Part shown: in pieces, positions 49,694 through 52,422 of the stretch
Numbering within the stretch: the first letter of the stretch is position 1
Layout of the letters: the number at the start of each line of letters is the position of its first letter
From: a virus
Lineage: Duplodnaviria > Caudoviricetes
IMG/VR virus record: IMGVR_UViG_3300021387_000535
Coordinates: 8,929-72,928 of that record
DNA: 64,000 nucleotides
Strand: one strand, 5' to 3'
Notes under the pieces: generated by a model
Seen by the model: the letters and a program-made list of their open reading frames with translations, nothing else
What the model was told of the DNA's origin: nothing
Database searches by the model: none
Program-made: the position numbers and the translations under genes

Positions 49694-49721
49694 AAAATGA
49701 CAAATGGCAAAGTTTAATTTT

Positions 49722-50335
49722 GGAAACTATATACCTGTTGACTTAAGAGTTTTATAAACTTTGTGATATTTATTATTATAATAACGAAACAAACATATAT
49801 AAAGAAATATGAAGAGAATAACAAGATTAACAGAAAGTGACCTTCGTAGAATCGTGAAAGAGTCTGTAAAGAAGGTATTAAAAGAAGGAGTTTTTGATAG
49901 TAAACGTATACAAGTGGAACTTGATAATTCTTTAGGTGGTGGGGCGATGGTTGCCGATTTTTATTCAAGTGACGATATGGTAACAATTATCACACGTGGT
50001 AATGGGGTTAATTTACACGAACTTGATACTGTTATGAATGAATTAGGGTATGAGAAATTTCGAATGATTCCAAAGGCTTGCGATGAACACCTTTTCATCC
50101 ATAAAGATAGTTTAGGGAAGTATTATGATGACGAAACCACAAATAGGCTAAAAATGGAACACGGTTTTGATGTTTAAGCAACCTTACACAGCCTTAATTA
50201 ACTCCAAGTAACAATCACTCCAATGGACTTGTTGAACATATCCTCAAAGCGTTCCAATCGGGACGCTTTTCTTGTGTTCCAACAATACATGCTTTTATTG
50301 ACATCTTCACTTCAGTCAACAGGTATATAATTCCC
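49722..50335. mobile_element. Non-autonomous transposon / mobile insertion cassette with IS1595 (ISNwi group)-like ends
   Basis: TIR-L GGAAACTATATACCTGTTGACTTAAG versus reverse complement of TIR-R GGGAATTATATACCTGTTGACTGAAG (23/26 identical). Exact 8-bp direct repeat TTAATTTT at 49714-49721 and 50336-50343. No transposase. Confidence 0.85.
49809..50177 (+). CDS. Passenger protein with LTESDL N-terminal leader
   Basis: MKRITRLTESDLRRIVKESVKKVLKEG...; the only credible ORF inside the cassette. Confidence 0.75.
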   Translation: MKRITRLTESDLRRIVKESVKKVLKEGVFDSKRIQVELDNSLGGGAMVADFYSSDDMVTIITRGNGVNLHELDTVMNELGYEKFRMIPKACDEHLFIHKDSLGKYYDDETTNRLKMEHGFDV

Positions 50336-50606
50336 TTAATTTTTCAATCACGGCGCACGTTAATAATGGCGCTATGGTTATTTATTCAAAAGACTATGTC
50401 TTCAATGTAACGCAGTTAGTTCGGTTTTGACATTAGCCGAATTTTGCATGCCGTTTAGACATTGGTCTATTGATGATGGCGATGATGTTGTAGGTTGCAC
50501 TTATTGTCAATATGTGTCTTATGATGACAACAAAGAGGACTACCTACTTGCATCGTGGTACGAGGTCGACGAAGATGATTGTATAATACTTTAACACTAC
50601 AATGAT

Positions 50607-51630: not shown

Positions 51631-52422
51631 ATGAAACAATATGTAACCTATCTTCGCGTCTCGACTCAGCGTCAAGGCGCACAAGGACTTGGTATCTCTG
51701 CACAGAGGAATATGTGCGAGAACTTTATCAAACAAAACAAAGGAAAGCAAGTCCAAGAATTTATGGATGTAGAAAGTGGTACGCATCGTGACAGAAAGGG
51801 TCTATGGCAAGCGATTGACTACTGCAAGAAGAATGGTTGCAGCTTAGTAATTGCGAAGTTGGACAGAATGAGCAGGGATGTGGAGTTTACTTTCAAGGTA
51901 ATTAACACAGGCATAGACATTCACTTTACGGATATGCCCGTTGTCAATTCAATGATACTAGGTGTATTTGCCGCCGTTGCTCAATACGAGCGGGAAATGG
52001 TATCAGATAGAACAAAGAAGGCTCTCGCGGTCAAGAAGGCGCAAGGTTGCAAGATGGGTGCTGCAAACGAAATATACCGTCTTAATTACAAGAACAAAAC
52101 CGAAGAAGAAAAGGCGAAAGTTCAGGCGGCAAAGGGGACATCAAAGAGGAATGGCCATCACGCTTCTAAAGACGTGCAAGGTTTCATTAAGGTTGTGCGT
52201 AAGGAGTTCAAGCAACTTAAATCGGACAACCCGAGCGAATGGAATTGGTCTATCGTTAATTGCAAAAGACCGCATCTTAACAACATGCTTGAAAGAATGC
52301 AAGAGTATCAGATGTTTGATTCATCTTTGTTTGAGAGATGGGACTTCAATGCGCCGAACGTTGAGCAGAAATTTAGGAGTTACATGCAGGCGTTCAAGAA
52401 GTCTTATTATAGTGTGTGTTAA
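51631..52422 (+). CDS. Serine recombinase (resolvase/invertase family)
   Basis: YLRVST catalytic Ser motif, DVESG, IAKLDRMSR, YEREMVSDRTK. Confidence 0.9.
   Translation: MKQYVTYLRVSTQRQGAQGLGISAQRNMCENFIKQNKGKQVQEFMDVESGTHRDRKGLWQAIDYCKKNGCSLVIAKLDRMSRDVEFTFKVINTGIDIHFTDMPVVNSMILGVFAAVAQYEREMVSDRTKKALAVKKAQGCKMGAANEIYRLNYKNKTEEEKAKVQAAKGTSKRNGHHASKDVQGFIKVVRKEFKQLKSDNPSEWNWSIVNCKRPHLNNMLERMQEYQMFDSSLFERWDFNAPNVEQKFRSYMQAFKKSYYSVC

Follow-up and report, generated by a model that had tools for sequence, protein, structure and literature searches.

To our knowledge, phage genomes are generally regarded as poor in transposable elements, and the acquisition of phage morons, the extra promoter-gene-terminator units described by Hendrix and colleagues, is usually left to unspecified illegitimate recombination. 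The locus described here, at which a small phage gene is split by a 614-bp segment carrying a gene of its own, raises the question of how such a segment arrived and what it brought with it. It lies in a 64-kb stretch (64,000 nucleotides, hereafter the window) of a 72.9-kb IMG/VR record, which is that of a tailed phage with terminase, primase-helicase, tail fibre and methyltransferase genes. An initial annotation, made from the letters of the window alone, had proposed that the segment is a transposase-less cassette with IS1595-like ends that is mobilised in trans and moves between phage genomes.

A 614-bp segment with inverted ends splits a small phage gene

Read directly from the sequence, the element spans 49722-50335 (614 bp) and has inverted ends at 49722-49747 and 50310-50335. 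The left end (26 bp) is GGAAACTATATACCTGTTGACTTAAG and the right end, in reverse complement, is GGGAATTATATACCTGTTGACTGAAG; 23 of the 26 positions are identical between them, among these a 16-mer core, TATATACCTGTTGACT, that is perfect in both. An independent repeat search recovers the same pair of inverted arms, and all of these dimensions agree exactly with those of the initial annotation. Even with two mismatches tolerated, the core occurs exactly twice in the window, in inverted orientation, against a chance expectation of 0.03 per window (at least two copies in 0 of 100 shuffles). The octamer TTAATTTT abuts both ends as an exact direct repeat (49714-49721 and 50336-50343), again as first described. 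The element is 60% coding, and its sole plus-strand open reading frame of at least 60 aa (49809-50177) encodes a protein of 122 aa that has no match in Pfam, which bears out the description of one passenger gene and no transposase. Throughout the 72.9-kb record the element is single-copy. The locus is composed of the following features:

49704-49721, plus strand: start of the target gene, first six codons (MAKFNF), whose last eight bases are the left target-site duplication (TSD) TTAATTTT; uninterrupted homologues in phages L094, L095 and L096
49722-49747, plus strand: left terminal inverted repeat (TIR), 26 bp, beginning GG and holding the core TATATACCTGTTGACT
49751-49808, plus strand: region upstream of the cargo, with the promoter-like motif GATATTTAT (putative function) at 49765-49773
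49809-50177, plus strand: passenger gene, an open reading frame of 122 aa; N-terminal helix with RLTESDLRRIVKESV, then a small alpha/beta domain
50246-50279, plus strand: intrinsic terminator with a 10-bp stem, a 4-nt loop and a T-rich tail
50310-50335, minus strand: right TIR, 26 bp, from the sequence and the repeat search
50336-50343, plus strand: right copy of the TSD TTAATTTT, 8 bp; a single copy stands at the homologous place in L096
50344-50594, plus strand: rest of the target gene, which encodes about 86 aa in relatives, with a 10-bp deletion between 50414 and 50415

Related phages carry the uninterrupted target gene

Deletion of 49722-50343, that is of the element and one copy of the TSD, fuses the stretch from the ATG at 49704 to TTTAATTTT with TCAATCACGG, giving MAKFNFSITAHVNNG. 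The junction reads through, and excision thus restores an in-frame gene start, as had been described. The resulting open reading frame of 34 aa has continuous homologues in three related phages (L094, L095 and L096), which were located through the neighbouring genes (44-64% amino-acid identity). In all three, the target gene is a single open reading frame of about 86 aa that immediately precedes the counterparts of the next two genes, gene order being conserved. Empty-site alleles of the kind sought by the initial annotation are therefore at hand: L096 is a textbook case, reading ATGGCAAAG-TTTAATTTT-TCAATTACGG with the octamer TTAATTTT present once, and L095 differs from it by one base. DNA alignment with the three intact relatives further reveals that the copy of the target gene in the window has suffered a frame-breaking deletion, the 10 bp missing between 50414 and 50415, and that its 3' part (50427-50594) stays open. 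The deletion is consistent with decay after inactivation of the target gene. A blastn search of the locus against 50,697 GenBank phages returned no match.

The IS1595 transposase domain (PF12762) was not found in the 72.9-kb phage record, which is 92% complete, and this argues for the mobilisation in trans that had been put forward from the sequence alone. The trans partner of this particular copy is hypothetical, no transposase having been found in its genome.

Copies of the cassette occupy two other sites, including one in an unrelated phage

A second, 571-bp cassette with both ends and the TSD TAAAATAA is found on L102, a 131.5-kb scaffold, and its cargo is 99% identical to that of the window. 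In the alignment of the two loci, identity extends from the first base of the left end to the last base of the right end and the flanks are unrelated; within the cassette, the copies differ by a 43-bp indel in the 3' region and by a variable stretch before the ATG. Neither blastn nor tblastx detected any match between the window and L102 outside the cassette. The neighbouring gene in L102 encodes a tail sheath (phrog_23, E 5e-44) and, since nothing else is common to the two sequences, L102 represents an unrelated, contractile-tailed phage. The same L102 insertion was recovered in another assembly as L267, and L280 provides a third site, with the TSD TAAAGAAT. The cassette is thus present at other loci with other duplications, and its occurrence in L102 supports the suggested movement between phage genomes. 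The orientation of the cargo relative to the two distinguishable ends is identical in all three copies.

Two side observations concern these sites. In L102, the right end of a second element with L282-like sequence (L102:2388-2408) lies 506 bp upstream of the cassette, and the adjacent insertions suggest a hot spot. L281 shares the cassette and the left flank with L280 and has a different right flank, which points either to recombination between two differently located copies or to a chimeric assembly spanning the repeat.

The ends define a family that includes IS1595 transposase-bearing elements

Viral contigs were scanned for the 16-mer, viral contigs and prokaryote genomes were then scanned for GGRAAYTATATACYTGTTGAC, and the ends were subsequently paired. 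The matches in prokaryote genomes come overwhelmingly from rumen and gut Bacteroidales MAGs (Prevotella, Prevotellaceae, Paludibacteraceae, Muribaculaceae). Pairing gave about 30 non-redundant elements, 131-4,688 bp in length, which have these ends in common and are flanked by perfect 8-bp duplications with an A+T content of 96%. The consensus of 66 ends is GGGAAC-TATATAC(C/T)TGTTGAC, with a G at position 1 in 62 of the 66 and at position 2 in all of them. Members of 131-259 bp qualify as MITEs and enclose no gene, and other same-ended shells contain TnpB, a Panacea antitoxin or GIY-YIG-like proteins, so the expectation of the initial annotation that the same ends would be found with other passengers was borne out.

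Several members deserve separate mention. A 3.1-kb transporter element (L072:4482-7628) carries a gene with a SocA/Panacea antitoxin domain (E 5.5e-20) and an adjacent gene for a 145-aa partner, and a GIY-YIG homing-endonuclease-like gene (phrog_7168) lies beside TnpB at L036:10765-11517. At least three family members (L018, L020 and L036) are located on one 69-kb viral contig, IMGVR_UViG_3300028886_000088. In a Bacteroidetes MAG (L068:394-890), five TIR-like 21-mers follow one another on one strand about 119 bp apart, forming a tandem array with transposon-end sequence. The TSD of L069 is also TTAATTTT; an insertion into the same target gene was considered and rejected, as L069 interrupts a different, bacterial-looking gene, and the octamer common to the two reflects target preference.

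The family includes elements that encode a transposase. Four loci (L034, L060, L069 and L072) and about ten more viral loci combine GGGAAYTATATACYTGTTGAC ends and perfect 8-bp AT-rich duplications with an IS1595-type open reading frame. In the four, this frame is 307-341 aa long and features Zn_ribbon_IS1595 (PF12760) and DDE_Tnp_IS1595 (PF12762, E 1e-37 to 1e-46); the four proteins are about 60% identical to one another and score 174-208 bits with the NCBIfam model NF033547, 'IS1595 family transposase', against a cut-off of 75. Such transposase-bearing elements occur in Bacteroidales MAGs as well as in viral contigs. With a transposase profile, relatives were detected in 78 viral contigs, of which about ten have the same ends and perfect duplications; these elements measure 1.7-4.7 kb, a size at which most must carry passengers, and some reside on contigs of 340-412 kb. 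The 8-bp AT-rich duplications that had been named as typical of IS1595 are found on same-ended elements that encode IS1595 transposases, and transposase-bearing elements sharing the ends of the cassette do exist (L034, L060, L069, L072 and L282, besides the viral loci).

The transposases of this lineage are less than 45% identical to any annotated plasmid-borne IS1595 member, their nearest named match is an ISPepr2-family transposase (37%), and they are almost unrepresented in 50,697 GenBank phage records. The ends of the window element, GGGAAYTAT, fit ggnnatTAT, which we take to be the consensus of the ISNwi1 subgroup; the IS1595 subgroup names are reportedly those of ISfinder and of Siguier et al. 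2009. In L282, a homologue of the cargo (74% identical) adjoins an IS1595 transposase (69% identical to that of L069), followed by a right end, and L282 is likely the full-length parent type of the window cassette, as judged from this gene arrangement. A comparable pair is formed by L069, with a transposase and three passengers, and L022, which lacks a transposase and has both ends of L069 together with a related cargo. These pairs indicate that internal deletion of transporter elements is the most likely origin of such cassettes.

The family bears directly on two other accounts of the locus. In the first, the gene would be an ordinary moron, swapped in by phage recombination, and its inverted and direct repeats would be fortuitous products of AT-rich DNA. 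Small accessory genes do form a mosaic in this region, AT-rich octamers are easily repeated, and members of the cargo family are also found outside such ends; however, the two copies of the 16-mer core, so far above the expected number, fall exactly at the boundaries, homology to the L102 copy stops to the base at the TIR termini, and the perfect 8-bp duplications recur in the approximately 30 non-redundant elements. We regard such a coincidence as very improbable.

In the second account, the 26-bp repeats would be the sites of a serine DNA invertase that flips the gene in the manner of Hin or Gin. Inverted repeats of about this length around a short segment are what such a system requires, and a serine recombinase gene (51631-52422; PHROG 'DNA invertase', phrog_125, E 1e-29) lies 1.3 kb downstream of the cassette, although no link between this gene and the element was found. 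Inversion, however, neither creates an 8-bp direct duplication nor leaves empty-site alleles. The same ends bound dozens of elements with their own duplications in unrelated genomes, many with an IS1595 transposase, the called neighbours of the L102 copy include no recombinase, and the constant orientation of the cargo in the three copies speaks against flipping. An invertible segment thus has hardly any likelihood left.

The passenger gene and its putative signals

Homologues of the cargo comprise nine full-length proteins (48-99% identity) and two with the leader alone. Since some of them have no detectable ends (L103, L104-L108, L268 and L283), the gene is not exclusively transposon-borne. 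The AlphaFold model of the 122-aa protein (pLDDT 73.7) consists of an N-terminal helix and a small alpha/beta, ferredoxin-like domain. Besides the empty Pfam search, PHROGs gave only a hit at noise level (E 0.26), Foldseek found nothing in the PDB at E 1e-3 or better, and comparison of the model with BFVD returned nothing. VIA-align wide placed an uncharacterised jumbo-phage protein first (best Z 6.2, inside the stated noise range of the tool), and the ESM Atlas gave unnamed clusters below 0.9. As a tentative working guess, one that we hold at somewhat less than even chances, the cargo may be an accessory protein of host interaction or anti-defence.

The only open reading frame of the element, of no recognisable family, might itself be an unconventional transposase or excision factor that makes the element autonomous, but this is highly implausible given that the same ends enclose unrelated cargo or nothing at all, that homologues occur without ends, and that the model, a small ferredoxin-like domain, has no nuclease or recombinase match.

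The motif GATATTTAT is found 44 nt before the ATG of the cargo, at the same position in all three copies of the cassette (window, L102 and L280), and in the window it occurs once, inside the cassette only. It also stands about 30 nt before tnpB in sister shells (L029) and before a cargo homologue without ends (L104). Its placement and its single occurrence suggest a promoter-like motif that travels with the cargo; a weak sigma-70-like match spans 49751-49779. The terminator at the other end of the unit has a fold energy of -15.9 kcal/mol (z = -4.6), and none of 200 shuffles was as good.

The N-terminal part of the protein contains a leader, RLTESDLxxIVKESV (49824-49868), which occurs once in the window, in the cassette only, and recurs in many small open reading frames in or near these transposons, sometimes internal to longer frames. 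On a 360-kb contig (L103:1700-3700), small genes with the leader stand in tandem and transposon ends are absent. The family of the 122-aa gene is common in large rumen and gut phages, and from these sequence comparisons the passenger gene looks to have been drawn from a multi-copy family of large phages. A literature search for the LTESDL motif found no mention of it; as speculation, the (L/V)-x-E triplets of the leader recall prohead-protease sites.

TnpB in sister shells

Transposase-less IS1595-type shells with TnpB were found at L011:5003-6440, L029:11438-12810 and L036:9438-11553, as well as in the viral contigs L187-L205. The TnpBs of the first three are 58-68% identical to one another. 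In most relatives with at least 52% identity, such ends lie about 110-130 bp away from the open reading frame, on one or both sides; more distant relatives are without them. Two loci are deletion derivatives of the TnpB shell and have perfect 8-bp duplications: L018:5851-6088 is a 238-bp MITE in which the promoter side and the 3' RNA block are kept and no open reading frame is left, and L035:8073-8574 is a 502-bp element with a 95-aa remnant of the TnpB C-terminus.

A conserved block of about 120 nt 3' of tnpB has the properties of a structured RNA, with 88% of cells paired compared with 77% in shuffles; none of 500 shuffles reached the observed pairing, and slid controls collapse. In the first hairpin of this block, the loop GGGAA base-pairs with the final five nucleotides (TTCCC) of the adjacent inverted repeat, and one pair of this loop-end helix covaries, being found as GC, UA, AU, CG and UG. 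Where the two ends of a shell differ, the hairpin loop follows the adjacent end. As the loop both pairs with and follows this end, the TnpB guide scaffold seems to finish at the transposon boundary. Rfam gave no family for the TnpB-bearing shells, and no conserved TAM was evident beside their duplications at about ten sites.

Altae-Tran et al. described six DDE-associated TnpB branches with inverted terminal repeats, in which the 3' end of tnpB lay within 250 bp of the element end in most examined cases, and solo TnpBs inside the same ends that are mobilised in trans; IS1595 is not named in the main text (Altae-Tran et al., 2023; PMC10691335). We had considered TnpB inside DDE-type inverted repeats as an unreported arrangement and dropped this, the principle having been published in 2023 in that work. 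TnpB in IS1595-type shells is a further partner family, with structural detail, of the published principle.

Discussion

The ends, the 8-bp duplication, the AT-rich target preference, the empty site, independent insertions, cognate transposases and the lack of a transposase in cis are established for the cassette. They lead us, with high confidence, to interpret 49722-50335 as a non-autonomous derivative of the IS1595 family, namely a mobile insertion cassette composed of two ends and one passenger transcription unit. The label of gene-delivery cassette given by the initial annotation is a fair one, any advantage of the cargo to the phage being hypothetical.

For this cassette, a DDE transposase encoded elsewhere would have bound the two 26-bp inverted ends, its source being either the chromosome of a Bacteroidales host or a co-infecting phage with a full-length 'transporter' copy. 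It would have cut at the ends and joined them to nicks staggered by 8 bp in an AT-rich target, with gap repair producing the TTAATTTT duplication. The IS1595 reaction may be either cut-and-paste or replicative. The insertion split the small phage gene after codon 6, the 10-bp frameshifting deletion having probably been acquired since. With a promoter-like motif, the 122-aa gene and a terminator on board, from which the cargo may be expressed, the cassette would behave as a transposon-delivered 'moron', and the cargo, being co-oriented with the flanking phage genes, could also be read through. Three of the 26 positions differ between the two ends, and the cassette may no longer be active.

How does the cassette relate to systems already described? 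The family criteria for IS1595 include 8-bp duplications, terminal inverted repeats and a transposase with Zn_ribbon_IS1595 and DDE_Tnp_IS1595 (PMC8101967). The lineage resembles the family in its 8-bp TSDs, in ends that begin with GG and in passenger genes between the ends, and its full-length members resemble it in encoding one transposase with an N-terminal Zn_ribbon_IS1595 and a C-terminal DDE_Tnp_IS1595. In contrast, the window copy encodes no transposase, making it a non-autonomous derivative and not an IS, and the lineage differs from the family in that it is found largely in phage genomes and carries cargo of phage type.

Mobile insertion cassettes (MICs) such as MIC231 of Bacillus cereus are mobilised in trans by IS231A, and ISsaga reportedly also uses the MIC concept. 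The window element is like a MIC in having IS ends with a duplication, a passenger open reading frame and no transposase, in being present as copies at several sites with different duplications, and in that a cognate autonomous IS exists. It differs from MIC231 in belonging to IS1595 rather than IS4, in residing on a phage replicon, in being common to unrelated phages, and in that its mobilisation in trans is deduced from sequence. The kind of element is already known, and the element is a mobile insertion cassette that belongs to a new lineage of IS1595.

The phage morons of Hendrix and colleagues offer a further parallel, since the window unit, which the related phages lack, has a strong terminator and, in the conserved motif, a putative promoter. 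It differs from morons in that its acquisition is legible from the ends and the duplication, and in that it interrupts a gene instead of lying between genes. MITEs have been reported in bulk as common to prokaryotes and their viruses, including Bacteroidota/Prevotella, and have been proposed as host markers, in a text that contains no occurrence of IS1595, passenger or cargo (PMC11602168). Our family is alike in consisting of non-autonomous TIR elements in Bacteroidota/Prevotella genomes and phages, with its 131-259-bp members; the window element differs, for it is 614 bp long, coding and a full transcription unit, and is therefore not a MITE.

The significance of the locus lies in an acquisition that can be read to the base, from an IS1595-bounded unit with its duplication and empty site to a copy in an unrelated phage and a full-length parent type. 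Through the shared ends, the phage is linked to Bacteroidales of the rumen and gut (Prevotella and Paludibacteraceae MAGs), which gives a hint of its host. The transposase of the lineage and its ends form a compact system that is a candidate for gene delivery into Bacteroidales phages, and the cargo family evidently represents an exchangeable phage accessory function, as yet uncharacterised. A more far-reaching possibility, to which we assign perhaps one chance in a handful and which we therefore consider doubtful, is that IS1595-type shells are a principal route by which ready-to-express units are exchanged among unrelated rumen and gut Bacteroidales phages, including those of 340-410 kb, and their hosts. 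The units in question would be LTESDL-leader proteins, TnpB with its guide-RNA scaffold, toxin-antitoxin pairs and homing-endonuclease-like genes. If this were true, there would be a concrete explanation of how morons are acquired; the LTESDL leader would act as an address tag, one that might for instance direct proteins into the virion, and the cassettes would deliver effectors that any recipient phage could use.
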